From the NCBI GenBank assembly GCA_000004985.1, contig GG738861.1: DNA of 64,000 nucleotides; one strand, written 5' to 3'. This stretch comes from Naegleria gruberi. Lineage: Eukaryota. Below the pieces are notes generated by a model that saw only the letters and a program-made list of their open reading frames with translations, ran no database searches and had not been told where the DNA came from. Made by a program: the position numbers and the translations under genes. Of this stretch, positions 1 to 18,001 are shown piece after piece. Position 1 is the first letter of the stretch. Each line of letters begins with the position of its first letter.

Positions 1-744
1 GTGGCCGAAGAATTATTGAGGCAACACCATATTTCATCCAACAAACGACAACTACAGTACGGCTCAAACAACAATTATTGGCTGGAAAGAAAGCACCCCT
101 CAAGATTTAAATGAATTTCAAAGCCGAAAAGATGAAAAAAAAAATATTCAACAAATAATCCGTTGTGACTTGCTGATTTTCAGAGTGATTTCACATCATG
201 AAAGCACCAAACTTTCACATCAGCATCTCAACATCATCCGAATAGTAATAACAATCATTGTTTTTTATTAGTGGATTATTATCAGCAAATAGGAATTTAT
301 TTTTAAAGTTGGAAAAATACCAGTTGGTGAACCATCATATGAGCACTCACCAACCATCATCATTATTGTTTTCCATCAATATAATAATAGTATTTGTGGA
401 AATTAATTTTTAGTAATGTAATTTTGGTTGAAGAGCCAAAATTTTCACTAAATCCATCATCACTGCTGAATCTACTGAACAAGTTGGAAAACTGTGAATG
501 TAGTATTGTTCGGAATTGTCAATAGGAGGCAGGAGAACTTTCTCTGATTCTACTACTATTTAAAATAGATAATAAACATCATATTTATTATCAGATTTTC
601 ATCATGTTCTATTGCCCTATCATCATTGCAATAATATAATTAATGAAAGACTTCCAATACGGCCCAAACCATTTGCACCACCCAAACAATCAAGTTTGCG
701 ATTGAAAGATTTTCAAGTTTGCGATTGACTCTTCAACACATAAA

Positions 745-2320
745 GTAAAGTATTCAGATTGATTTTAATTTTACATAATAGTTTTATTACAAACAAGTTT
801 TTGTTGTTTGTTTGGGAGAATTGAATTGTTTCAAAATCAATAGATTTAGAAACACTTTCTGTGGACAATACCTGGACCGGCATCCTCATATTCTTCCTTG
901 GTGATCCACATTTGTTGGAAAGTGGACAATGAAGCCAAGATGGAACCACCAATCCAGACAGAGTACTTTCTTTCAGGTGGAGCAACAACCTTAATCTTCA
1001 TGGAAGCTGGAGCCATAGCAGTCAATTCCTTGGTCATTCTTTCAGCAATACCTTCGAACATAGTAGTACCACCAGACAAGACAACGTTACCGTACAAGTC
1101 CTTTCTGATATCAATATCACATTTACCAATAGAGTTGAAAGTAGTTTCATGAACACCAGCAGCTTCCATACCAATGAAGTTTGGTTGGAACAAAACTTCT
1201 GGACATCTGAATCTTTCATTACCAACAGTGATAACATTACCGTCTGGCAATTCGTATGACTTTTCAACAGATGATGATTCAGCAGCAACCTTCATTTCAG
1301 CTTCGAAATCCAAAGCAATATAACAGAGCTTTTCCTTAATATCTCTGACGATTTCTCTTTCAGCAGTAGTATTGAATGAGTAACCTCTTTCCATCAAAAT
1401 CTTCATCAAGTAATCAGTCAAATCACGGCCAGCCAAATCCAATCTCAAAATGGCGTGTGGCAAAGCATAACCTTCATAAATTGGAACAGTGTGGGAAACA
1501 CCATCACCAGAGTCCAAAACAATACCAGTGGTTCTACCAGAAGCATACAAGGACAAGACAGCTTGAATAGCGACATACATAGCTGGAACTGAGAAGGTTT
1601 CAAACATAATTTGAGTCATCTTTTCTCTGTTTGCCTTTGGATTCAAAGGAGCTTCAGTCAACAAGACTGGGTGTTCTTCTGGAGCAACTCTCAATTCATT
1701 GTAGAAAGTGTGATGCCAGATCTTTTCCATATCGTCCCAATTGGTAACAATACCGTGTTCAATTGGATACTTCAAAGTCAAAATACCTCTCTTTGATTGA
1801 GCTTCATCACCAACATAGGCATCCTTATTACCCATACCAACCATAATGGACTTTTGCTTTGGTCTACCAATAATTGAAGGGAAGACAGCTCTTGGAGCAT
1901 CATCACCAGCAAAACCAGCTTTACACATACCAGAACCGTTATCGACAACGAGGGCTTGAACGTCTTCACAGAATGACATTTTATAGATTATTTGAATGGA
2001 TTTGTTTTTTTTGATTTTTAATTGATGATTTGTGTGTTAAAAAAATATTTAAATGAAAAATTAATGAAAGAATGATTGATGTGATTGATGGCAAGTCAAA
2101 TTGAAGTTTTAAAAAACTATTTTAGAGGTCATTTTTTAAATGTGGAAAGTCAAGTGAAGAAGAACAACTTTACAATATGACTTTTCATTCTTTTCATTCA
2201 ACACATCATCAAAATTACTAGCAATCAACTGTAAAATTTAACACATCAAACATTGCTTTGTCAACTTACTGTAATTTTCAACGTGGAAAAAATTCATCAA
2301 GTTTGAATGAAACCAACTTC
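745..2320. repeat. arm A of a ~1.57-kb inverted duplication (actin CDS plus ~340 bp 5' flank plus ~100 bp 3' flank)
   Basis: The reverse complement of 1980..2315 matches 8160..8477 with small indels (e.g. aatatttttttaacacacaaatcatcaattaaaaatcaaaaaaaaacaaatccattcaaat). The 3' flank, reverse-complemented 760..845, matches 9612..9707. Similarity ends at about 745 and about 2320. Confidence 0.8.
846..1979 (-). CDS. actin (copy A), 377 aa, single exon
   Basis: Full-length ORF with canonical actin motifs ([68 protein letters not shown]-terminus). Stop is TAA. Codons are those of a highly expressed gene (GGT, GCT, AGA, TTG, CCA). Confidence 0.95.
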
Positions 2321-3072
2321 GTCATCATGGAGGAACTAACAGCAACCAGGAATTAATTTATTGTTAGGATTGTGGTCAAGAGACGAAATTAACAAAATTG
2401 TCTCACCCTATATATTCATTGATGCATCAGTGATTCGCATTCTTGTTGTGGTGAGTCCTCTATGGACTTTGATTGGATTGATACTTGGTAATCGGATTCT
2501 CCTTCTTAATACCTCACAAATGGGAATAAGTTTTCTTCTGATTTTCAATTCCCAAGACTAGTATTTATTGTGGTCAGTCTTTTTGGCCTTACACTTGATA
2601 AGTGTGATCTACTGGATTTGGCCAAAATCATCAATAACACTGCCTCGTATCTGCTTGTTGGAATGCCAATTTTTTTAAGTTGGAAGTGCTTGTTGTTATT
2701 AAGAGAGTAATCCAAACAATAATCATTCCTCAATGGTTGTGATATTTTTGATATTTTAGACACAAAGTGGAATTTAATTTGGCTTCAGGTAGGCCTAATT
2801 GCTCTTTTTCCCAACATGAAGATTGTTGGAAACAATACTATGGAGAAAGAATAATAGATTTGGAATTGACCTATTTGGTCCTAATTGCTTGTGGATATTA
2901 TGAGTTTTTTATTGTTTTCTTAAAATTTGAGTTTCACCAATATTTGGATATTTTATTTATTACAAAGCCATACTACGGGGCAAAACATCAATCAACAAGT
3001 GAATGTTCAAGTAATTTCAATAATTGAGCAAAGTTCATCCATCACAATAAATTATTTACAATTCATAAAAAA

Positions 3073-3975
3073 ATGTCTCAAACAACAGTAAAGAATCGTT
3101 GCCCTCACAGAGTTTGGTATCGATTGTATGAATCCGATGATGTAAACTTTACAGGAAAAGACATTGCATCAGGTGAACAGCAAACTGTGGAGGGTGAATT
3201 TAAATCAGTGAAGGGATTCAAGTGGGAGAGAGGAGAGGATGAAGTTTGGGAACCAACTTTTAAAAGTCTATTAGAACCACAAGATGCTTGGAATTATCAC
3301 GTTGATTTGACTTCATTGTTTGGATGTAGACCTGCTAGCTCAATCAAAGTGTTCATGGCATGTTTGGCTGGTCCAGCAGATCCAATGACAAGGAATGACA
3401 TTATTCTCATCGATAAATTACATAAAGAGATTGGTGTACCAAGGGAGAATATTTGGATGTTTTTGGAGAGACAATGTACACCAAATGCAATTTATGAATC
3501 ATTGAAGGTGGCTGCCGAAATTTGTAATGATGAAAATGATATCCTATTTGTTTATTTGGGAGGACATGGAAGCAGAAAACAAAGTGAAGTTTATCAAGAA
3601 AGTGGAAACAAGTTTGAATATAATTTGGGAACTTGGGGAGGATCTACTCCTAGCTCACTTGTTTTGAAAGCAATTCAAAATGTAAAGTGTCCTGTTTTTA
3701 TGGTAGTGGACTCGTGTTATAGTGGCCAAATGATTGATGATGCAAAGAGTTATTTCCTTCATGCACCTCTTGCTCATGAGTTGTATGTTTTAACTTCAAC
3801 TCAGAATGACAAGTCAGCTCAAACTGGCTGGAGACTAATTCAAATGTTGATTGATATCATGATTGAAAGATCAAAGAGTATTACAATTACTCCTACTCTG
3901 ATAGGAAAGACAATTTCAGAAAATTTGAGAACCCCCTATGAAGAACAACGATCTCAATTCCAAATTATTGAATAA
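3073..3975 (+). CDS. caspase-fold (clan CD, C14-like) cysteine peptidase domain protein, 300 aa
   Basis: Putative catalytic dyad ILFVYLGGHGS ... VFMVVDSCYSGQ, with ~48 residues between His and Cys as in caspases and metacaspases. No signal peptide seen. Confidence 0.45.
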   Translation: MSQTTVKNRCPHRVWYRLYESDDVNFTGKDIASGEQQTVEGEFKSVKGFKWERGEDEVWEPTFKSLLEPQDAWNYHVDLTSLFGCRPASSIKVFMACLAGPADPMTRNDIILIDKLHKEIGVPRENIWMFLERQCTPNAIYESLKVAAEICNDENDILFVYLGGHGSRKQSEVYQESGNKFEYNLGTWGGSTPSSLVLKAIQNVKCPVFMVVDSCYSGQMIDDAKSYFLHAPLAHELYVLTSTQNDKSAQTGWRLIQMLIDIMIERSKSITITPTLIGKTISENLRTPYEEQRSQFQIIE

Positions 3976-4366
3976 GTAACTGGCCCACAACAAATCTCCC
4001 AAAATCATATTCGAATGATGAACGAGATCTACAAAATGAGAAATAAACATTAGTCTCCATTATGTCTGTAAACTGTCCCATTCAAGGAAGGGTTCAGAAA
4101 GATATGGAAAATTTGTCAAACAGTCAAACTGCATTATTGCAATGTATTTCAAGCAATTTATTTCATGTTCATTTCTTGAGATATTTGGTAGTAATGTAAA
4201 ATGTGTTTCCAATTATTAAATATCTATGTAACATTATAATTATGAACGAAATCACTTCAGTTAAATTTTGACGATGAAAACAATTCTGAAAATAGCATAA
4301 CTTTAAAAAACATAAATTTTTGCCATCAACTTTTAATGTCCAACCATCAAATCAACATAAAAAAAA

Positions 4367-5116
4367 ATGCAACCCATTCAACCACCAAACAAACAATCAT
4401 CATCAGCAACACCTTCTTTCCTTAATTCTCAGCAACGGAACCAACATGATGAAAAACAACCTGTGAATGATAATGAAGAACAAGATGAACTAAATTTATC
4501 AATTTATGAAGAGGATAATATCAGCACAGATGATGAATGTCATGATAATGGAATTTCCAATTTATCTTTGCATTCCAATCATCAAGAAGATGAAACAGAG
4601 GATGCATCTCCACTTGAGGAATTGAACAAATTCGTCTTCAACATTCATGCTTTCAGAGGTGAATTGTTAATGAATGAGACAAGTAATAATGCCACTATTC
4701 AAGTTTACAAAAATACAAATTATAGCTGTAGAAATTCAAATTTCAAGTTACATGATATTCCCTTGATATTCTTGGATGGTTGTAAAGATAATGTATTTTA
4801 TTGTAAGAAACATTGTGAGAAAGTGTATTCACATTCGAATCTCCATACCACAATTGACAGATTAGGTGGATCCACAACAAGAATTACAGCATTTGGACTT
4901 TCTTTATTGAAGAAGGCAATGGTGCTGATAAACAAGGAATCGAATAGTTTTGATACACTGCTATCTAATCATGCTCAACAGCTGGCTTTGGTTTCGTATA
5001 CAGGATTGATGCTAATGGCTAATAAGAAGAAGAATCAACCTGAATGGGACGAAACTGAATTATCTTCCTTTTACAAGCACAAGTTTATTATTGTATTGAA
5101 GGGAATTACTTTATAA
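4367..5116 (+). CDS. hypothetical acidic protein, 249 aa (Q/N/D/E-rich N-terminus)
   Basis: Long ORF with host-like codon usage. No recognisable domain. Confidence 0.4.
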   Translation: MQPIQPPNKQSSSATPSFLNSQQRNQHDEKQPVNDNEEQDELNLSIYEEDNISTDDECHDNGISNLSLHSNHQEDETEDASPLEELNKFVFNIHAFRGELLMNETSNNATIQVYKNTNYSCRNSNFKLHDIPLIFLDGCKDNVFYCKKHCEKVYSHSNLHTTIDRLGGSTTRITAFGLSLLKKAMVLINKESNSFDTLLSNHAQQLALVSYTGLMLMANKKKNQPEWDETELSSFYKHKFIIVLKGITL

Positions 5117-5153
5117 CTCAAATTGTTGTAATCATAAATTCGAATATTAAAAA

Positions 5154-5513
5154 ATGTCATATCTTCAACTCCCCACAGAGATGCACCACCAGATTCTATC
5201 CTATTTATCACCTTTTTGTGAATTATTCCACAATCAAATTGGTGGAAAACACTTGGATCCATTTATAAAGTTCATTCCGATAATATTGAACTTTCGATTG
5301 ATTCATCCAAATTATTCGAAATTAATTTCAAAATATGTAGATGAATTTTGTTGGAGTTTATTTGGAAATATGATGGATACTTATTCGATAGAACCCAAAG
5401 AAATTGATTTATTGAAAATTAAATTCACCAAAATTGGAATTGTGAAAAGTTTTGGTTCCTTTATTCATCTGATTCGAACAAGAGAAAAACAAATCCGATT
5501 CATCAGAAATTAA
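5154..5513 (+). CDS. F-box motif protein (119 aa ORF; may be the 5' exon of the downstream GTPase)
   Basis: N-terminal LPTEMHHQILSYLSP fits the F-box consensus LPxEIL..IL.yL. No C-terminal substrate-binding domain within the ORF. Confidence 0.45.
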   Translation: MSYLQLPTEMHHQILSYLSPFCELFHNQIGGKHLDPFIKFIPIILNFRLIHPNYSKLISKYVDEFCWSLFGNMMDTYSIEPKEIDLLKIKFTKIGIVKSFGSFIHLIRTREKQIRFIRN

Positions 5514-6180
5514 ACTCTTTCTACTGGGAAGTGTGTACAGTGGCAAAACCTCAATTATTAAGAGATTTGTTTATAATCAGTTCACACAAGGTTATGAATC
5601 ACCTTCCTGTTTTTATGAAGAATTCAAACAAACAATTTCTATAGATCAAAGAGAAGAATCCATACTCTTAATAGATTCATTTGGGATCCTTAGTCGTTTC
5701 CTTCCATTTGAAGAACGTTATTATTGTAAAAAGATTAATTTCAATGTTTTGGTAATTGTTTGCTCAATGACGGAATATGAAAGTTTGCATGATTTGAAAC
5801 AAATATTGAGGAGATTTGTGGATGATAAGGGATTGAATGCTCCTTGTGTTGTGGCCATTAATAAGTGTGATCTTTTTCATCATTGTGTGGTTGATATAAG
5901 GGAGGTTAATGAAATTGTGGAAAATTTTGGATTGACTGATTATAAAATTATGGAGACGAGTGCAAAAACAGGAAAGAATATTGAAGAATTAGTGGAAGAA
6001 TGTGTTAGAAAGTTTAGAGAACGATTGAGAGATGTAAAAAGTGTTGTAGAACAAGTTCTGTTATTGGATCAAGAGGAGAAAGATGACAGAATGAGTATTT
6101 ACAAGATGGTGTTTATACCTCTTTGCTTTCTTTGGAATTTGATACTAAACTCGATTTTTCTCTGGAAGCTTAATGAATAG
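5473..6180 (+). CDS. divergent Ras-superfamily small GTPase
   Basis: G1 KLFLLGSVYSGKTS, G3 LLIDSFG (DxxG), G4 NKCD, G5 ETSAK. The frame is open from 5473 with no ATG before the listed GTG start at 5533, so the true 5' end is probably supplied by splicing. Ends TAG at 6180. Confidence 0.65.
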   Translation, partial: FEQEKNKSDSSEIKLFLLGSVYSGKTSIIKRFVYNQFTQGYESPSCFYEEFKQTISIDQREESILLIDSFGILSRFLPFEERYYCKKINFNVLVIVCSMTEYESLHDLKQILRRFVDDKGLNAPCVVAINKCDLFHHCVVDIREVNEIVENFGLTDYKIMETSAKTGKNIEELVEECVRKFRERLRDVKSVVEQVLLLDQEEKDDRMSIYKMVFIPLCFLWNLILNSIFLWKLNE

Positions 6181-6637
6181 AATCTCACCGACACGGAATT
6201 CACTAGACAAGTTTTCATTATTTTATGAAACAGAAAGGATAACCTTCTTAATGTTTCAAAAGATGCTAATCAAATAATTGGAAATGTTATAATCTATCAA
6301 CATTTCATTCTGTGGATCATCTTCTGAAATTCTGAATTGAATAGCAATGGAGCTTTGTTTAAAAGATAACTTGATAAGATTTGTTAATTAATTATAATTT
6401 ACAATTTTTCATGACTAACGTAATTCTCAACAATAACATACCAATTTGAAATTTGGTAAAACTGCAAATAGAATATTTTATTGGAAAGAAAAATAAAGGA
6501 GTCTAACCTTTGACTATTTTCTCGATGGAATTAGGAGATAAGGTTTTGAAAATTGGCAGATATGTTGATTACATACCAGTCTTCATATTATGAAAAAAAT
6601 TTTAAATTAAATAGTGAAGATAAAGTTAAAAATTAAT

Positions 6638-7092
6638 CTCGAGTGCCGGGAATTGAATTTCCTAATTTGGAAGATGACTTCAACAACCAAATAACAATAA
6701 TAAATTGGGTTATTAAATTAATGTTTATTAAATAGTGACCGTTAGGTCACTGATTGTTAATTAATTATTGATGATGATTTGTTGTTGAACAGATACTAAC
6801 CACCACCGATTGTTGTCATAATATTAAACACAGAGTAATCACCGTGTCGCCAAATTCCTTGATAATTATTCATAACTGTAACTTCTTGATCAAAAGGCAC
6901 TCGAGCAATAAACAATTTGATTTCACACAGCCAAAACTCTCGTTCATACTTTGGGTACCGGGAATGAAATTTCCAAATAAGGAATGACCGATATCATTCA
7001 ACTATTACTAACTCATACTCACACTAACAAAACAAATTGAACCCGGGTCGCCAGAGTGACAGTCTGGAATGCTACCACTATACCACACCCGA
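6638..7092 (-). pseudogene. tRNA-Asp(GUC) gene interrupted in the T-loop: 5' part 7092..7035 (nt 1-60), 3' part 6650..6638 (T-stem CCCGG + acceptor CACTCGA + discriminator G)
   Basis: Reverse complement of 7035..7092 is TCGGGTG TG GTAT AGTGGTA GCAT T CCAGA CTGTCAC TCTGG CGAC CCGGG TTCAATT (anticodon GTC). Reverse complement of 6638..6657 is TTCAATT CCCGG CACTCGA G. The acceptor halves pair 7/7 with one G·U, and the T-stem halves pair 5/5. The two parts are 377 bp apart. Confidence 0.75.
6658..7034. mobile_element. 377-bp non-coding insertion in the tRNA-Asp T-loop, flanked by 7-bp direct repeats AATTGAA (6651..6657 and 7035..7041)
   Basis: Left end TTTCCTAATTTGGAAG and right end ...CAACTATTACTAACTCATACTCACACTAACAAAACAA. 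Both ends are homologous to the ends of the 1,333-bp insertion at 23272..24604. It contains an internal second copy of the junction motif at 6951..6985. Confidence 0.55.
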
Positions 7093-8159
7093 TTTCATAT
7101 TAAGTGATAAATATTATTGAATATATAGACGTATTTTCAACAATTTTAAATAATTCTACCAACACCAATCCTGTGGTGAGATCCAGTTTCAAACCCTTTT
7201 AAAGGCATCCATTGCCCATCAGTAATTATAAACGAGTTGATCTCACAATAGTTCCTCGGACAATATTCCAATTTCCTTCAACACGTATTCTTCTTCCAAT
7301 CTCTCAAGCCTTTCCATAAATTGCAATACAATAATGATTCAGAAGTATGAATAAATTCAATAGTATCACATTTACATATAGTACATTTAGAACATGATCA
7401 GCACAGCCATTAGTTTCCCAAATTCCACTCTCTGAAAATCTTAAAGATTCAGTACTATCAGTCTCGTGTAGAAATTAACAAGAATACTGTGATAATTCAT
7501 TCACTCACAGAATTCAATTCAGTAGGTGAAAAGACAGGAAAGTTAATTTGATCTACCTTAAAATTGGTTTCCATCTTTGTCTAGAATATCACCTTAATTC
7601 ATTGAACAAGGGAATTTTCTAGAATATACATGTTAACTTTGCAAGAGCTTATTTCAAAAGATCAACTCTTGACACAAGTGGAAAATTAATCAACTCAAAT
7701 TAACAATGCTGTTCAATCACTGATGTCAAATATTAAAGGGTTCATCCCTATCCCCAATTACTATTCTCTTAAAATCACATAACTTTATCCAAAATGATTT
7801 CCAGTGTTTTCCCTTCTTCATTCCAGAATTAACTGAAGAAATATCATCCACTCAACTAATCATCTCAATAATACATGTGTTTATCTCAAATTATAATGTA
7901 AATATATCCACAGCACACAATGTTGCAACTTGAATTGATTGGAAGAGTAGAGTCACTTTGGGATGATTAAATTTGTTGTAGCCTCTCCACTAAATGTTAA
8001 ACCAACAACAACAATAATACCATCCAATGATAATCAACAATTGACGGCCCTCCAACTAGAAAGGGACAAGAAATAACGATGTGATATTACTATCAATATG
8101 TATGTGGTGGGAATTGTGTGAGCAGATGCAAGAATATTGTAGATGAAGGTTTTCTATTT

Positions 8160-9710
8160 TTTATCAAACTTGATGAATTTTTTCCATGTTGAAAATTACA
8201 GTAAGTTGTTAATTGCAATGTTTGCTGATTGTTTGCTCGTAATGTTTGATGATGTGTTGAATGAAAATAATGAAAAGTCATATTGTAAAGTTGTTCTTCT
8301 TCACTTGACTTTCCACATTTAAAAAATGACCTCTAAAATAGTTTTTTAAACTTCAATTTGACTTGCCATCAATCACATCAATCATTCTATCATTAATTTT
8401 TCATTTAAATATTTTTTTAACACACAAATCATCAATTAAAAATCAAAAAAAAACAAATCCATTCAAATTCTATAAAAATGTCATTCTGTGAAGACGTTCA
8501 AGCCCTCGTTGTCGATAACGGTTCTGGTATGTGTAAAGCTGGTTTTGCTGGTGATGATGCTCCAAGAGCTGTCTTCCCTTCAATTATTGGTAGACCAAAG
8601 CAAAAGTCCATTATGGTTGGTATGGGTAATAAGGATGCCTATGTTGGTGATGAAGCTCAATCCAAGAGAGGTATTTTAACTTTGAAGTATCCAATTGAAC
8701 ACGGTATTGTTACCAATTGGGATGATATGGAAAAGATCTGGCATCACACTTTCTACAATGAATTGAGAGTTGCTCCAGAAGAACATCCAGTCTTGTTGAC
8801 TGAAGCTCCTTTGAATCCAAAGGCCAATAGAGAAAAGATGACTCAAATTATGTTTGAAACTTTCTCAGTTCCAGCTATGTACGTCGCTATTCAAGCTGTC
8901 TTGTCCTTGTATGCTTCTGGTAGAACTACTGGTATTGTTTTGGACTCTGGTGATGGTGTTTCCCACACTGTTCCTATCTATGAAGGTTATGCTTTGCCAC
9001 ACGCCATCTTGAGATTGGATTTGGCTGGTCGTGATTTGACTGATTATTTGATGAAGATTTTGATGGAAAGAGGTTATTCATTCAATACTACTGCTGAAAG
9101 AGAAATTGTCAGAGATATTAAGGAAAAGCTCTGTTATATTGCTTTGGATTTCGAAGCTGAAATGAAGGTTGCTGCTGAATCATCATCAGTTGAAAAGTCA
9201 TACGAATTGCCAGATGGTAATGTTATCACTGTTGGTAACGAAAGATTCAGATGTCCAGAAGTCTTGTTCCAACCAAACTTCATTGGTATGGAAGCTGCTG
9301 GTGTTCATGAAACTACTTTCAACTCCATTGGTAAATGTGATATTGACATCAGAAAGGACTTGTACGGTAACGTTGTCTTGTCTGGTGGTACTACTATGTT
9401 CGAAGGTATTGCTGAAAGAATGACCAAGGAATTGACTGCTATGGCTCCTGCTTCAATGAAGATTAAGGTTGTTGCTCCACCTGAAAGAAAGTACTCTGTC
9501 TGGATTGGTGGTTCCATCTTGGCTTCATTGTCCACTTTCCAACAAATGTGGATCACAAAGGAAGAATATGAGGATGCCGGTCCAGGTATTGTTCACAGAA
9601 AGTGTTTCTAAATCTATTGATTTTGAAACAATTCAATTCTCCCAAACAAACAACAAAAACTTGTTTGTAATAAAACTATTATGTAAAATTAAAATCAATC
9701 TGAATACTTT
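8160..9710. repeat. arm B of the inverted actin duplication
   Basis: See arm A. The arms are separated by ~5.8 kb carrying 3073..6180 and the repeat-rich 6200..8100 region. Confidence 0.8.
8478..9611 (+). CDS. actin (copy B), protein identical to copy A
   Basis: Same 377-aa translation as 846..1979. Nucleotide sequence differs at a few synonymous sites (alternate-frame shadow ORFs 1034..1288 and 9169..9423 differ at 6 of 84 codons). Confidence 0.95.
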
Positions 9711-10004
9711 TTGTGTTGCGAAAGAGAAATTGAAATCTTTAACAAACTTCGAATAGGTTCAAAGTTATTATAGACAAAACTTGGAAATGAACTAAATTAA
9801 TCTTCCCTTAAATCAAAAAGATTCTCATTTACTCTCAAGCCCTTAAATAGTCATCATCAACATGTTGACTCTCTCTCGAATATTCGTCATCACCAACAGC
9901 ACGGAAGTTTAGGATGACGCACAAAAAGATATTATTCGTAAATAATGTACTTATGAATAAAATATATTTGGATCTATTCAAAAGGATCTAAAATAGAAAA
10001 AAAA

Positions 10005-12138
10005 ATGAGCAAACAAGAATTGCAGGAAACCATTGAAAAATCAACTAGCAAGACTGCTGCTGATGAGAGCAGTTTTGAAGAGGAAGAACATGAGGATATC
10101 ACTGCAGATGAACAAGTATTGCAAGATTTTTACAAGAAGGAAGCTCAGATTAAACAAGCTACTAAACCAAAGGAAGAAAAGCCGGTTGCTGCTTCTACTT
10201 ATGAAGATCAGGGAGAAGGTGCACATATGATTGAAATGCCATTAGATAAAACTAAGCTTTCCAAGACTGATATTAGGTCATTGCACAAAGATGAAGTAAA
10301 ACAAGCTAGAAAGGAATTGGACAAGCTTCCGAAGCCTCAAACTTTCCCAAATCATGCTGAAATTAGTTTCTTTGGTGCTTCAGGTACTGTTACTGGTAGT
10401 AAGCACATGATTACTTATGGATCTTTGAATGCTTTGATTGATTGCGGAATGTATCAAGGTTTGAAGGAACTTAGGTATGTTTTTTAATTCTTTCATTTGT
10501 TTTAATTAGATTAATTATCAAAGAGAGAGAAACTGGAAATTAATTTCATCATCAAAACCTGTTGAAACAATGTGTGATGCCATCATTATTACTCACTCTC
10601 ACTTGGATCACACTGGTTATCTTCCAAGGTATGTTTTTTATACAATGTTTTGATACAAATGAAAATTAAAACTATCAAAAATCATCAATCGGAATGAATA
10701 ATTTAATCTTCAATCATCATAATAATATCAAAATAGAATGGTTGCTCTTGGATTTACTGGACCAATCTACATGACAGAACAAACATTTAATTTGACCAAA
10801 CTAATCTTGTTGGATTCTGCTCGTTTACAAGAAGAAGATGCTCACTATGCCAATCACAAAGAAACTACTAAACATGAGGTTGCCCTTCCACTCTATTCCG
10901 AAGAAGATGTTCTCAACTGTTTCAAGTTGGTGAGAACTGTCAAGTATGGAGAAAAAATTGTTGTTAAAAGTAGATTGGATGAAGACAAATTCAGCTTTAA
11001 ATACTTTAATGCAGGACACTTGTTGGGATCATCGTTTGTTGAAATTACTCTTGACACAAAGGAAAAGATTATCTTTTCAGGAGATTTGGGAACTTTCCAC
11101 ACCTCCACTCCAATGCAACAACAACCTCAATTACCAATGGGAGCTGATTATGTTATTTGTGAAGCTACTTATGGTGGCAAGTCACACATTGATTTTGCAA
11201 CTGGTAGAGCTGCTGAGGATCAAGATTACATTATTGAAACTAAGGTTAAACCAGCGTTGAAACAAGCTGTTGAACATATTGTGGAAAATGATGGTGTAAT
11301 TCTTATTCCAGCTTTTGCCATTGGTCGTTCTCAAACTATTGCTTATCACTTGTTAAAGATGATGAGAGAGAAGGAAATTCCAACACTTCCTGTCCACATG
11401 AACTCTCCAATGTCAGTTGAAGCTCTTGATTTTTATCAACAATATTTATTGGACGAACATCAAAAGGATGCACACGAAATTTTGAGAGATGTCATTTGCC
11501 ATAATAGTGCTAAGGAATCTAAGGAACTTCACAAAAAGCTCAAGGATGGTTATTCTAAATGTGTCATTATCAGTAGTAGTGGTATGATGACAGGTGGTCG
11601 TTGTTTATTCCACTTTGAAGAATTGGCTCCTCATGAAAAGAACGTTCTCTTATTGAGTGGTTTCCAAGCTGAAGGTACAAGAGGTAGAGACTTGCTTAAT
11701 GGTGTCAGAGATATCAAATTATTGGGCAAGACTGTCAATGTTAAATGCCAAGTCATGCAAGTCCAAGGTTTGTCTGCTCACGGTGATACTGATGATGTTA
11801 TTAAATGGATTGAGGCTGCCAAAAATCCAAAACCAAAGATGGTTTTCGTTGTCCACGGAGAACCAACCTCACTCCGTAGTATGGCTAGAGAAATTTGTGT
11901 TGAATTGGATGTTAATGCTCTCGTTCCAAAGAGAGGTACAACATTCCACATGAGAACTGAACTCTCCTTCAGTCACAGTAGAAGAGCTAGTGTTGTTTCA
12001 ACCAATAACAGTTTACAAGATGTCATTTCAAGCAATATGCCTGATATTCCAAAACTTGGAAAGACCAATATGGTTCACGTGATGTATGCTGGTATTATTT
12101 TAATTGCCTTTATTGCCTTCCTTTTAAGATTCTTTTAA
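10005..12138 (+). CDS. bacterial-type β-CASP metallo-β-lactamase-fold RNA-metabolising hydrolase with acidic N-terminal extension and C-terminal TM anchor; 3 exons (10005..10474, ~10524..10628, 10737..12138)
   Basis: FFGASGTVTGSKHMI...LIDCGMYQG and AIIITHSHLDHTGYLP (HxHxDH), split by introns GTATGT...AG (~49 nt) and GTATGT...AAATAG (10629..10736). Also FNAGHLLGSS, YVICEATYGG, LSAHGD and VHGEP β-CASP motifs. C-terminus has hydrophobic helix AGIILIAFIAFLL. Confidence 0.7.
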
Positions 12139-16813: not shown

Positions 16814-18001
16814 TTAAGGTTGAAAACAATCGAAAAATCGTTTCTTTCTCTGCAATGCTTCACATCCATATTCCTCATAATCCGCCATAGCAACAGCCAT
16901 TTCTGCGAAGGACTCAAGGGAACCAGCAATACTTCCTCCAATCCATGATGAGTAACGTCTCTCAGGAGCTGCCACCACACTTAATCTCAATGATTTTGGT
17001 ATTAATTGTGCCAAATCATGTCTAATTCTGTCTGCCAGTCCAGGAAGGAGCGAAACTCCTCCCGAAATGATAATATTATTGTAGAGACCGTAGCGAGTGT
17101 CAATGTTTGATGCTTGCATGCTGTCTTGAATAATATCAACAATTCCTGGATATTCAGAATTAATTATTTGAGGATTGAAGAGAATTTCATTACATGTGAA
17201 ATGTTCATGAGATAGATTTAACACTTGACCATCAGGTAGCTCATACTGTTGATGTCCTTCACTAGACATTCGACTATTTTCATATTCTCTATCATAATCC
17301 TCTGCAACACGACCAATTTTCCTAATCATTTGATCCACAATTGACCTATTCCCTTCCAAACAAATTCCATGATTTTCACTCAACATTTTAATCATGTAAT
17401 CTGTAACATTGGCTCCTCCAAAATTAATCCTCCTCGTTGTATTATTATCTACAAATCCCCAATAACATGGCACTATCTGAATCACACCCTCTCCCAAGCA
17501 TAAACTCAGTGCCGTCGTTGTTCCACATGCATAGACAGACATGAGAGGTTGTGGAGAGCAGGCAAACGATCCAAATCCATACTTTTCAAAGAATAATTGC
17601 ATTAAATGATTCTTCTGTGAGGAGGGTTGTAAAATTGAATCAATGAATAGTATTGATCTCGATTCATTGTCTGAAATTTCACATTCAGAATTTTGAGTAT
17701 TTTTTGAGAGAATTTCTTGAAAGGTATAATCAAGTAAAATTTCCATCAAATCCCAATTTTTAATAATTCCATTTCGGATGGGATAGTTTAGATTGAGAAT
17801 TCCTTCTCGTTTAATTGCCTGATCACCAATATAACCTGATTTCATAGTGCAATCACTAATCATGATGGGTGAATATTTAGGTGTTCCGATACAGGAAGGA
17901 AAGACACAGCTGGGTGCATCTTCTCCTGCTATGCCTGCATAGAATGTGCTTGAACCGCAATCTAAAACGAATACTTCTGGCCACTCATCACTGAATGACA
18001 T
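16814..18001 (-). CDS. actin-related protein (divergent actin fold), 395 aa
   Basis: N-terminal VLDCGSSTFYAGIAGEDAPSCVFPS and C-terminal LRLSVVAAPERRYSSWIGGSIAGSLESF are actin-family signatures with insertions. Subfamily is not assignable by eye. Confidence 0.65.
   Translation of the reverse strand: MSFSDEWPEVFVLDCGSSTFYAGIAGEDAPSCVFPSCIGTPKYSPIMISDCTMKSGYIGDQAIKREGILNLNYPIRNGIIKNWDLMEILLDYTFQEILSKNTQNSECEISDNESRSILFIDSILQPSSQKNHLMQLFFEKYGFGSFACSPQPLMSVYACGTTTALSLCLGEGVIQIVPCYWGFVDNNTTRRINFGGANVTDYMIKMLSENHGICLEGNRSIVDQMIRKIGRVAEDYDREYENSRMSSEGHQQYELPDGQVLNLSHEHFTCNEILFNPQIINSEYPGIVDIIQDSMQASNIDTRYGLYNNIIISGGVSLLPGLADRIRHDLAQLIPKSLRLSVVAAPERRYSSWIGGSIAGSLESFAEMAVAMADYEEYGCEALQRKKRFFDCFQP

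Follow-up and report, generated by a model that had tools for sequence, protein, structure and literature searches.

Discordant coding and flanking histories in a head-to-head actin gene pair of Naegleria gruberi

A 64-kb stretch of the Naegleria gruberi genome, referred to here as the window, carries two actin genes in inverted orientation. An earlier note on this DNA attributed their likeness either to a recent duplication or to ongoing gene conversion under strong purifying selection, and pointed out that inverted repeats of this size can mediate inversion of the segment between them. The question raised by this locus is which of these histories the two genes record, and whether coding sequence and flanks record the same one.

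The inverted duplication and its spacer

The two genes, copy A and copy B, lie in an inverted repeat with core arms at 747-2306 (1560 nt, actin on the minus strand) and 8164-9710 (1547 nt, actin on the plus strand), where the earlier note had placed an inverted actin duplication. Alignment of the arms covers 1543 positions with 34 substitutions and 21 gap nucleotides, giving 97.8% identity over aligned positions, within the 97-98% claimed, and 96.5% when gaps are counted. No other repeat of 60 nt or longer was found in the 64-kb window, so that chance can be excluded as the origin of the pair. The genes are arranged head-to-head with both promoters pointing to the spacer, and the arms include 327 nt (copy A) or 314 nt (copy B) of 5' flank and 99 nt each of 3' flank, close to the ~340 bp of promoter and ~100 bp of 3' flank first estimated. 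The features of the locus are as follows.

692..746, minus strand: outer edge of the left arm in degraded form, past the actin 3' flank, with a local direct repeat inside (caagtttgcgattga, two copies)
747..845, minus strand: 3' flank in the left arm and putative 3' UTR of copy A, 99 nt, 0 differences from 9612-9710
846..1979, minus strand: actin copy A, 377 aa, intron-less (ORF; tblastn 100% to copy B)
1980..2306, minus strand: left arm 5' flank of copy A (5' UTR and promoter), divided into 1980-2213 (proximal) and 2214-2306 (distal)
2307..8163, no strand: unique spacer, 5,857 nt, with dissimilar borders
3073-3975, plus strand: C14-like ORF in the spacer (Pfam C14/C13, E=0.001, with 19.2 bits where the cut-off is 21.4)
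4367-5116, plus strand: ORF in the spacer
5154-5513, plus strand: F-box-like ORF, sub-threshold (E=0.011)
5533-6180, plus strand: Ras-family GTPase ORF, a solid match (E=4e-18)
6639..7092, minus strand: tRNA-Asp(GTC), T-loop interrupted by ~377 nt, with a TTCAATT duplication flanking the insert
8164..8477, plus strand: right arm 5' flank (promoter and 5' UTR) of copy B, aligning to 2306-1980
8478..9611, plus strand: actin copy B, 377 aa, intron-less (ORF)
9612..9710, plus strand: 3' flank in the right arm and putative 3' UTR of copy B, identical to 845-747
9711..9749, plus strand: outer edge of the right arm in degraded form, similar to 692-746

Different unique DNA borders each arm on both sides, and reverse-complementary copies alike beyond chance, each with its own unique flanks, constitute an inverted segmental duplication. 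The inner borders of the spacer bear no similarity to each other. At the outer edge identity drops stepwise at 9710/747, from 117 identical nucleotides to a degraded yet significant homology that reaches outward to ~692/9749; the gapped similarity of 692-746 to 9711-9749 scores 35, against a mean of 15.9 and a maximum of 31 in shuffles (0/2000).

The intervening segment had been described as 5.8 kb long, which fits the 5,857 nt measured, but its coordinates had been given as 3073..8100, and the true spacer is 2307-8163. Its contents were described correctly in part: the GTPase of a proposed F-box/GTPase unit is a Ras-family member beyond doubt, while the F-box match and that of the proposed caspase-fold peptidase to C14/C13 both lie below threshold. 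The stretch 6180-8090 is ORF-free and contains the tRNA-Asp insertion locus, which holds up as a tRNA gene split in its T-loop; the native locus goes undetected by ARAGORN and Rfam, and deleting 7034..6651 restores a clean ARAGORN cloverleaf. For positions 1-12000 Rfam gave only sub-threshold mir-3533 matches inside both actin coding sequences (33 bits, with a gathering score of 104) and a weak match to Giardia U6, all dismissed as noise. Two related sequences, a 95%-identical beta-CASP ortholog (L014) that starts at window position 10279 and a 59%-identical C14-like homolog (L016), do not extend to the arms and say nothing about the arrangement.

Coding sequences and flanks with different histories

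Copies A and B translate to identical proteins of 377 aa each because all 26 differences between their coding sequences are synonymous third-position changes (dN = 0), just as had been claimed. The protein matches four N. gruberi actin accessions exactly (EFC36529/37355/38601/45736), with Pfam PF00022 on record for the identical product; it is 99% identical to the actins of N. fowleri and N. lovaniensis over 99% of its length, with a figure of 98% for N. fowleri Actin-1 (ACT1_NAEFO). By full-length domain and near-identity the two copies are conventional actins of the Naegleria Actin-1 group.

The silent differences tell another story. Synonymous divergence between A and B amounts to pS = 26/243 = 0.107 (10.7%; dS 0.115), and the proximal 5' and 3' flanks together differ at 2/332 positions, or 0.6%. 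Flanks are thus ~18 times less diverged than synonymous sites (Fisher p=1.2e-8), and at the flank rate ~1.5 synonymous differences would have been expected where 26 are observed. Uniform divergence over coding sequence and flanks, which the earlier note had named as the pattern that would speak against conversion, is absent, and the non-uniformity runs opposite to naive expectation, the flanks being the less diverged part. The most diverged part of the arms is their centre, the middle of the coding sequence; the distal 5' edge is also more diverged, but by few events. With the flanks so much less diverged, a recent duplication followed by neutral drift does not by itself account for the coding differences: the actin coding sequence has a history unlike that of its own flanks.

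A metagenome contig (k=127) from a related strain, L015, allows the same comparison between strains. It is orthologous, spans the inner part of one arm, and reproduces the left arm/spacer junction independently; its actin coding sequence is limited to the first 151 nt. Within these, it differs from the window at 9 positions (6%; eight third positions and M48L), and at all nine sites A equals B. The actin 5' flank differs between the window strain and L015 by 1.5-1.7%, and neighbouring DNA by 0.8-2.0%, so that on this comparison the flank is not slow-evolving but differs between strains as much as its surroundings. The coding excess, 6% against 0.8-2% around it, is significant (Fisher p=0.0008). 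Discordant histories of coding sequence and flanks, the mark of interlocus gene conversion, are therefore found both between the arms and between strains. Exact scans of metagenome contigs with invariant promoter motifs gave 0 matches.

The actin gene family of N. gruberi is very large. The genomes of N. gruberi and N. fowleri each encode more than 20 actins (PMC7594500), and the number of Actin-1 genes runs from 4 in N. lovaniensis to 64 in N. gruberi (PMC9928731). We located genes for identical actin in eight places in the N. fowleri assembly and three in that of N. lovaniensis, with at least four gene models in N. gruberi. The N. fowleri copies at four distinct loci are 0-3 nt apart, and N. 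lovaniensis loci 1 and 2 are 3 nt apart; orthologous loci of the two species, paired by flank synteny, are 47-49 nt apart. Upstream of the coding sequence, paralog homology in both species stops after ~50 nt, and downstream of it after 10-35 nt. Concerted evolution of actin is directly shown in these two species, and since paralogs within a species are far more alike than orthologs between species, gene conversion is active in the family. The window's proteins and flanks found no syntenic match among all the actin loci fetched from N. fowleri and N. lovaniensis, and in N. fowleri the ortholog of the beta-CASP gene next to the pair has no actin adjoining it.

A third full-length gene was the sole return of an exact-protein look-up, as a short Logan contig from run SRR3922091 (L001). 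It encodes the identical protein despite 35/40 synonymous differences from A/B, and its UTRs align to theirs only with several indels. For coding sequence the ratio of the A-B distance to the distance from A to this gene is ~0.7, and the flanks are 99% identical between A and B and barely alignable between A and the third gene. Tract analysis took in A, B and this one other full-length paralog. Neither a run test nor a GENECONV-style inspection of the sites variable among them revealed a significant tract; sites at which one or another copy is the odd one out are interleaved (~14 runs against 13 expected). The strong purifying selection claimed for the pair is well founded, with dN of 0 between A and B, the same protein in the third gene at 35-40 synonymous differences, and 99% identity to N. 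fowleri actin.

The locus is a genuine head-to-head duplication of a complete actin transcription unit, comprising promoter, intron-less coding sequence and 3' UTR. We consider it probable that its history is reticulate, with conversion limited to the coding sequence involving other actin paralogs, and with flanks that are either young or homogenised arm-to-arm. Both copies presumably contribute to the major cytoplasmic actin supply, and purifying selection holds their proteins identical. The coding sequence would exchange sequence with dispersed actin paralogs by gene conversion, confined there because the homology between dispersed copies ends within ~50 nt of it. Such conversion would import synonymous variants and leave the A and B coding sequences more different than their flanks, which may be shared in near-identical form by these two copies only. 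The near-identity of the flanks could come from a young duplication, from conversion between the arms, or from the two together. The differences between the A and B coding sequences seem better explained by import from other paralogs, a reading that the related-strain contig supports; which way conversion ran and from which donors, and whether the arms also convert each other, is a matter of inference from these patterns.

Alternative readings

The alternative that survives best is an old inverted duplication homogenised by palindrome-type conversion between its own arms, with no input from other paralogs. Recent tracts would then cover the 5' flank with the first 185 nt of coding sequence, and the 3' end with the 3' flank, leaving the middle of the coding sequence with its old divergence. 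The placement of the differences fits: all fall in coding nucleotides 186-1116, with zero over 8390-8662 and over 9594-9710, and the first 61 codons are free of them (P=0.008, for an observation made post hoc). An older unit homogenised in its interior would likewise be suggested by the degradation at the outer edge and by the higher divergence at the distal 5' edge. It should be considered, however, that a homology block undergoing conversion is normally more homogeneous at its centre than at its margins, and that arm-to-arm exchange leaves unexplained why in the related strain a coding sequence 6% different is joined to a promoter 1.7% different, at sites where A and B agree. The distal edge is also a poor witness. 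Copies A and B differ by two substitutions and a few 1-nt indels in the proximal 5' flank and by six substitutions and larger indels in the distal part, and the latter (8% substitutions) was entertained as old divergence; polarising the flank differences with L015 reduced it to few indel or complex events in a star-like pattern, with L015 not grouping with A against B distally. A star-like pattern is compatible both with a young duplication and with homogenisation between the arms. We regard this account as improbable.

A different suggestion concerns function, namely that recombination between the arms repeatedly inverts the 5.9-kb spacer as a flip-flop and that the arrangement is maintained for that purpose. 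Arms of 1.5 kb with 98% identity are ample substrate, and it is plausible from the sequence that the pair could support homologous inversion of the spacer; inversion by recombination within the arms leaves every local junction as before. Assembly contigs of N. fowleri also join upstream (U) and downstream (D) flanks of different actin copies, as U4+D3, U2+D4 and U3+D2, with the switch sitting within the block of actin homology. The three joins form a closed set, as would be expected from two inversions between actin copies in inverted orientation, and the reads behind the assembly (N50 11.7 kb) are far longer than the 1.2-kb repeat, although the pattern is one of assembly contigs throughout. 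Against a functional role, inversion would alter no promoter-gene relationship: the own promoter of each actin lies inside its arm, so no switch is apparent. Nor does the spacer encode a recombinase, its ORFs matching only C14/C13 (weakly), F-box (weakly) and Ras. Lacking a recombinase and having actin promoters that are independent of orientation, the locus is not a recombinase-driven invertible switch, and a flip-flop maintained for its function is improbable.

A broader and tentative idea is that dispersed near-identical actins are the main recombination substrates reshaping Naegleria chromosomes, with inverted pairs, the window pair included, repeatedly inverting and creating structural heterozygosity while the same exchanges homogenise the family. 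If so, N. fowleri ATCC 30894 would carry two nested inversions of ~23 kb and ~107 kb with breakpoints in actin genes. We hold this to be possible, though on the unlikely side.

Simple recent duplication followed by point mutation, with no conversion and with the synonymous differences as neutral drift, would account for 97.8% identity, identical proteins and changes that are all synonymous. It fails on the ~18-fold gap between 10.7% synonymous and 0.6% flank divergence (p=1e-8), and constraint on the flank cannot rescue it since between strains the flank changes as fast as the background; concerted evolution demonstrated in the family weighs against it as well. This reading is strongly disfavoured and very unlikely. 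Of the two histories first proposed, conversion finds support in the family, where paralogs are far more alike than orthologs, and drift since a recent duplication does not suffice for the coding differences. Finally, an assembly artefact, in which mis-joined or collapsed reads of a gene highly multi-copy in N. gruberi created the second copy or the flank near-identity in a fragmented Sanger draft (1977 contigs / 784 scaffolds, PMC6831594), is exceedingly unlikely given the consistent pattern formed by 34 substitutions and by several indels, unique DNA that differs on both sides, an independent metagenome contig with the same left arm/spacer junction, and four gene models for the exact protein in the public annotation.

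Significance and comparison with known systems

The actin pair offers a clean natural case in which the coding sequence and flanks of one gene have different genealogies. Synonymous divergence is here uninformative on the age of the duplication, and dating Naegleria duplicates by dS calls for corresponding caution. Should the N. fowleri contig pattern be real, actin genes would be breakpoints of structural variation in the genome of a human pathogen, and if actin breakpoints hold true, assembly, synteny and strain-typing work would be affected.

Many genes for one actin are also described from other amoebae. A statement in PMC7594500, citing Joseph et al. 2008, credits Dictyostelium discoideum, an amoeba whose many genes for one conventional actin are dispersed, with 17 genes for identical actin, and the same source reads many identical actins in amoebae as a sign of importance for the amoeboid lifestyle; Dictyostelium is an unrelated lineage, and the likeness to Naegleria is that of the cited statement. 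Closer to hand, Lai et al. 1988 (PMC2115128) describe for the flagellar alpha-tubulin of N. gruberi about eight 'exceptionally similar' segments that are non-identical, non-tandem and intron-less. Three alpha-tubulin genes sequenced there encode an identical protein, the same multigene style as actin in a different gene (PMC2115128).

Within the Naegleria Actin-1 family the window pair is typical in being intron-less and among many genes for one identical protein, and copies of the family often alternate in orientation on one contig, as here. It departs from the sister species in what was duplicated. There, homology between copies usually covers the coding sequence and ~50 nt to either side, with coding sequences near-identical (0-3 nt), whereas in the window two copies of an entire transcription unit lie 5.9 kb from each other, with near-identical flanks and 26 synonymous differences.

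Large inverted repeats homogenised arm-to-arm are well known, for example the palindromes of the human Y chromosome and the inverted repeats of plastids, and the shaping of inverted duplicates by gene conversion is textbook material. The actin arms share with the classic palindromes their inverted arrangement, a unique spacer, near-identical interior sequence, a stepped edge and the capacity for inversion of the spacer; they differ in being tiny (1.5 kb) and in being least alike at their centre, the coding sequence. The pair is an ordinary member of a large sequence-swapping family, and a tidy example of a known process rather than a new one.

Structure and divergence of the actin pair

A repeat search of positions 1-12000 returned one inverted repeat, split by small indels into collinear pieces, and this actin repeat is the sole repeat of at least 60 nt across the entire 64-kb window. 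The core limits of its arms were set by one local and one global alignment.

747-2306, left arm, 1560 nt, actin on the minus strand
846-1979, minus strand, actin copy A, intron-less ORF of 377 aa
2307-8163, unique spacer between the arms, 5,857 nt
8164-9710, right arm, 1547 nt, actin on the plus strand
8478-9611, plus strand, actin copy B, intron-less ORF of 377 aa

Aligned over 1543 positions, the arms differ by 34 substitutions (97.8% identity, gaps not counted) and by 21 gap nt, and they reach beyond the CDS by 327 nt (A) or 314 nt (B) upstream and 99 nt downstream. The genes lie head-to-head with their promoters pointing into the spacer; their translations are identical to each other and to an N. 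gruberi actin recorded under four accessions. Repeat search, alignments and translations thus bear out an earlier note, made from the sequence alone, which had described an inverted duplication with two protein-identical actin genes; the segment it saw bracketed between them is present, with its coordinates needing a small correction to 2307-8163. At the inner ends similarity stops cleanly at 2306/8164. At the outer end 117 identical nt are followed by an abrupt step to degraded, gapped but significant homology (9711-9749 versus 692-746: score 35, shuffle maximum 31, with 0 of 2000 shuffles reaching the score).

The two CDSs differ at 26 sites, every one a synonymous third-position change (19 transitions and 7 transversions) within CDS nt 186-1116; the earlier note had likewise seen only synonymous differences. 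Over 243 synonymous sites this gives pS of 0.107 and dS of 0.115. The proximal 5' flank (233 nt) has 2 substitutions and the 3' flank (99 nt) has none, so that non-coding flanks differ at 2/332 (0.6%) versus 10.7% of synonymous sites (Fisher p = 1.2e-8). Divergence between the arms is therefore strongly non-uniform, in the reverse sense to conversion keeping genes alike while flanks drift. The interpretation in the earlier note is partly borne out: purifying selection and gene conversion are supported, but it is the CDS and not the flanks that is the more diverged part. Rfam matches to mir-3533 within both actin CDSs (1089-1172 and 9285-9368) are far below threshold, at 32-33 bits versus a gathering score of 104; a microRNA reading was dropped, and the matches were taken as noise from the actin coding sequence itself.

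An orthologous locus and a third actin gene

A metagenome contig (L015, ENA ERZ929261), located because it encodes a protein 99% identical to the C14-like one of the spacer, aligns to window positions 1829-5492. The alignment extends from the first 151 nt of the left actin CDS through the arm 5' flank into the same unique DNA of the spacer and on to the genes that follow. The contig is an orthologous locus from a related strain and reproduces the left arm/spacer junction in independent data.

Divergence of the related-strain contig L015 from the window, by region
Arm 5' flank: 1.5-1.7%
Unique non-coding DNA: 0.8%
C14-like CDS: 1.3%
Next intergenic region, ORF249 and 5117-5492: 1.8-2.0%
Actin CDS, first 151 nt: 9/151 = 6.0%

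The arm flank evolves at the background rate, and therefore constraint does not account for its near-identity between the arms. The much higher divergence of the actin CDS than of the flank means that the CDS has a genealogy different from that of its attached promoter. The nine actin differences comprise eight third positions and one Met-to-Leu change (Fisher p = 0.0008), and at 9/9 of these sites A and B agree. The Met48 to Leu change (L015 1-151) falls in the DNase-I-binding loop region of an actin joined to an A-type promoter, so the actin that the related strain has at this locus differs in protein sequence from that of the window. Polarised with L015, the proximal flank is star-like, with 3 A-specific, 5 B-specific and 1 L015-specific changes.

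A third gene, L001 (from Logan run SRR3922091), points the same way. Its protein is identical, its CDS has 35 synonymous differences from A and 40 from B, and its UTRs can be aligned to those of the pair only with several indels. In the CDS the A-B distance is ~0.7 of that between A and L001; in the flanks A and B are 99% identical while A and L001 are barely alignable. A run test on the variable sites of these three sequences was not significant.

Spacer contents and neighbouring genes

The earlier note had placed a caspase-fold peptidase, an F-box/GTPase unit and a tRNA-Asp insertion in the spacer. The GTPase is clear, a 215-aa ORF of the Ras family, but the other two protein assignments rest below Pfam thresholds: a 119-aa ORF has a sub-threshold F-box match, and a 300-aa ORF has sub-threshold matches to both Peptidase_C14 and C13. 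This C14-like protein belongs to a small family of 23 detectable homologs, none from N. fowleri and nearly all unnamed environmental sequences, plus one Verrucomicrobia and one Hyaloraphidium protein; just one homolog carries a precomputed Pfam domain (C13).

3073-3975, plus strand, C14-like ORF
6639-7092, minus strand, split tRNA-Asp(GTC), T-loop broken by ~377 nt bounded by duplicated TTCAATT
10005-12138, plus strand, beta-CASP/metallo-beta-lactamase gene adjoining the right arm
16844-18001, minus strand, divergent actin-family gene, 386 aa

ARAGORN and Rfam detected no tRNA in the native spacer sequence. On the minus strand a tRNA-Asp(GTC) begins at 7092 and runs as far as the T-loop at 7035, and its 3' end lies at 6650 to 6639; in silico removal of the intervening 384 nt (377 nt plus the second TTCAATT) restores a clean cloverleaf. 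The tRNA-Asp insertion locus of the earlier note is therefore a genuine, disrupted tRNA gene, though peripheral to the actin pair. Within the insert lies a second, degenerate copy of the insert 3' end plus tRNA 3' end (6973 to 6948); no further copy of the tRNA head was found elsewhere in the window. The insert could be a mobile element, a tRNA-derived repeat or a partial duplication. The surrounding 1.9 kb (6180-8090) has no ORF of at least 50 aa on either strand, amid gene-dense DNA.

Beyond Naegleria and Willaertia, the named matches of the beta-CASP gene are all bacterial (Acidobacteriota and others, 35-40% identity); among its best 120 matches, many of them nameless, there are no other named eukaryotes. 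A possible reading is that Heterolobosea have an RNase J-like gene of bacterial type. The divergent actin-family gene, 7 kb from the pair, is 36% identical to conventional actin (Pfam Actin E=3e-85) and probably belongs to the many actin-like/Arp genes that N. gruberi has.

Exchange and possible rearrangement among Naegleria actins

The closest protein relatives of the pair's actin include those of N. fowleri and N. lovaniensis. In N. fowleri ATCC 30894 an identical actin protein is encoded at eight places, four of them on one contig at ~432 kb (+), 483 kb (-), 591 kb (+) and 616 kb (-); in N. lovaniensis the actin is encoded at three. By flank similarity two loci are orthologous between these species, one flanked by ARPC4/Sec8 and one by abhydrolase/PARP/IF3. 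Their CDSs are 1 nt apart within N. fowleri and 3 nt within N. lovaniensis, versus 47-49 nt between species, a hallmark of concerted evolution. In these species the similarity of one copy to another is mostly lost ~50 nt before the CDS and 10-35 nt past it, and because of this, exchange with dispersed paralogs can affect the coding region only. Upstream of copies 1 and 2 the shared unit is longer in both species, ~1.34 kb (98% identity) in N. fowleri (L005/L006) and ~0.7 kb (97%) in N. lovaniensis (L012/L013), and it carries a 99-100-aa ORF of unassigned function; other copies share just ~50 nt upstream.

Recombination inside the arms, which the earlier note saw as a possible route to inversion, would leave every local junction unaltered. 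A lead comes from actin-bearing contigs of N. fowleri (L002-L010: GCA_008403515.1 contigs VFQX01000044/80/75/50/46; ENA ERZ2098899). With upstream (U) and downstream (D) flanks numbered by copy, U2-D2, U3-D3 and U4-D4 occur on the main contig, and U4-D3, U2-D4 and U3-D2 on three smaller ones of 45-65 kb. Their flanks are 99.1-99.8% identical to the main contig, real SNPs included, and in 3/3 rearranged joins the switch falls within the actin homology block (CDS +/- 50 nt). One further small contig, the fourth, runs collinear with copy 1. Taken together, the three rearranged joins are a closed set that, as read from contigs and not reads, matches exactly the outcome of two successive actin-mediated inversions on an alternative haplotype. 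The first would lie between copies 2 and 3, head-to-head and ~107 kb apart; the copy that this produces would then recombine with copy 4 in the second (~23 kb). L010, a short contig of a different assembly, joins a U1/2-type flank to D3 and could be the intermediate of these inversions. The N. fowleri assembly was built with Canu from ONT reads of N50 11.7 kb (PMC6831594); reads so much longer than a repeat of 1.2 kb speak against trivial chimeras. In the literature searched we found no account of gene conversion among Naegleria actin genes, nor of rearrangements bounded by them, although this does not prove absence.

The window pair is a whole actin transcription unit duplicated head-to-head, with its protein held invariant by purifying selection. 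We propose that the CDS would trade sequence with the wider actin family. Synonymous variants imported in this way would explain why CDSs, both A versus B and at orthologous loci across strains, diverge more than their flanks; the near-identical flanks may reflect a young duplication, arm-to-arm conversion, or both. The analysis turned up no outgroup carrying both arms, and in N. fowleri no actin lies next to the ortholog of the neighbouring beta-CASP gene, which argues against an ancient origin of the pair within the genus.

The pair is real and ordinary, one more member of the known multi-copy kind of amoeba actin. N. gruberi and N. fowleri are reported to have >20 actins each, with 78 actins plus Arps in N. 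gruberi, and Dictyostelium to have 17 genes for one identical actin (PMC7594500). A pangenome study counted from 4 (N. lovaniensis) to 64 (N. gruberi) Actin-1 genes and called the reason unclear (PMC9928731). The alpha-tubulin family of N. gruberi is a further such set, with 'exceptionally similar' non-tandem genes whose three sequenced members all encode an identical protein (PMC2115128).
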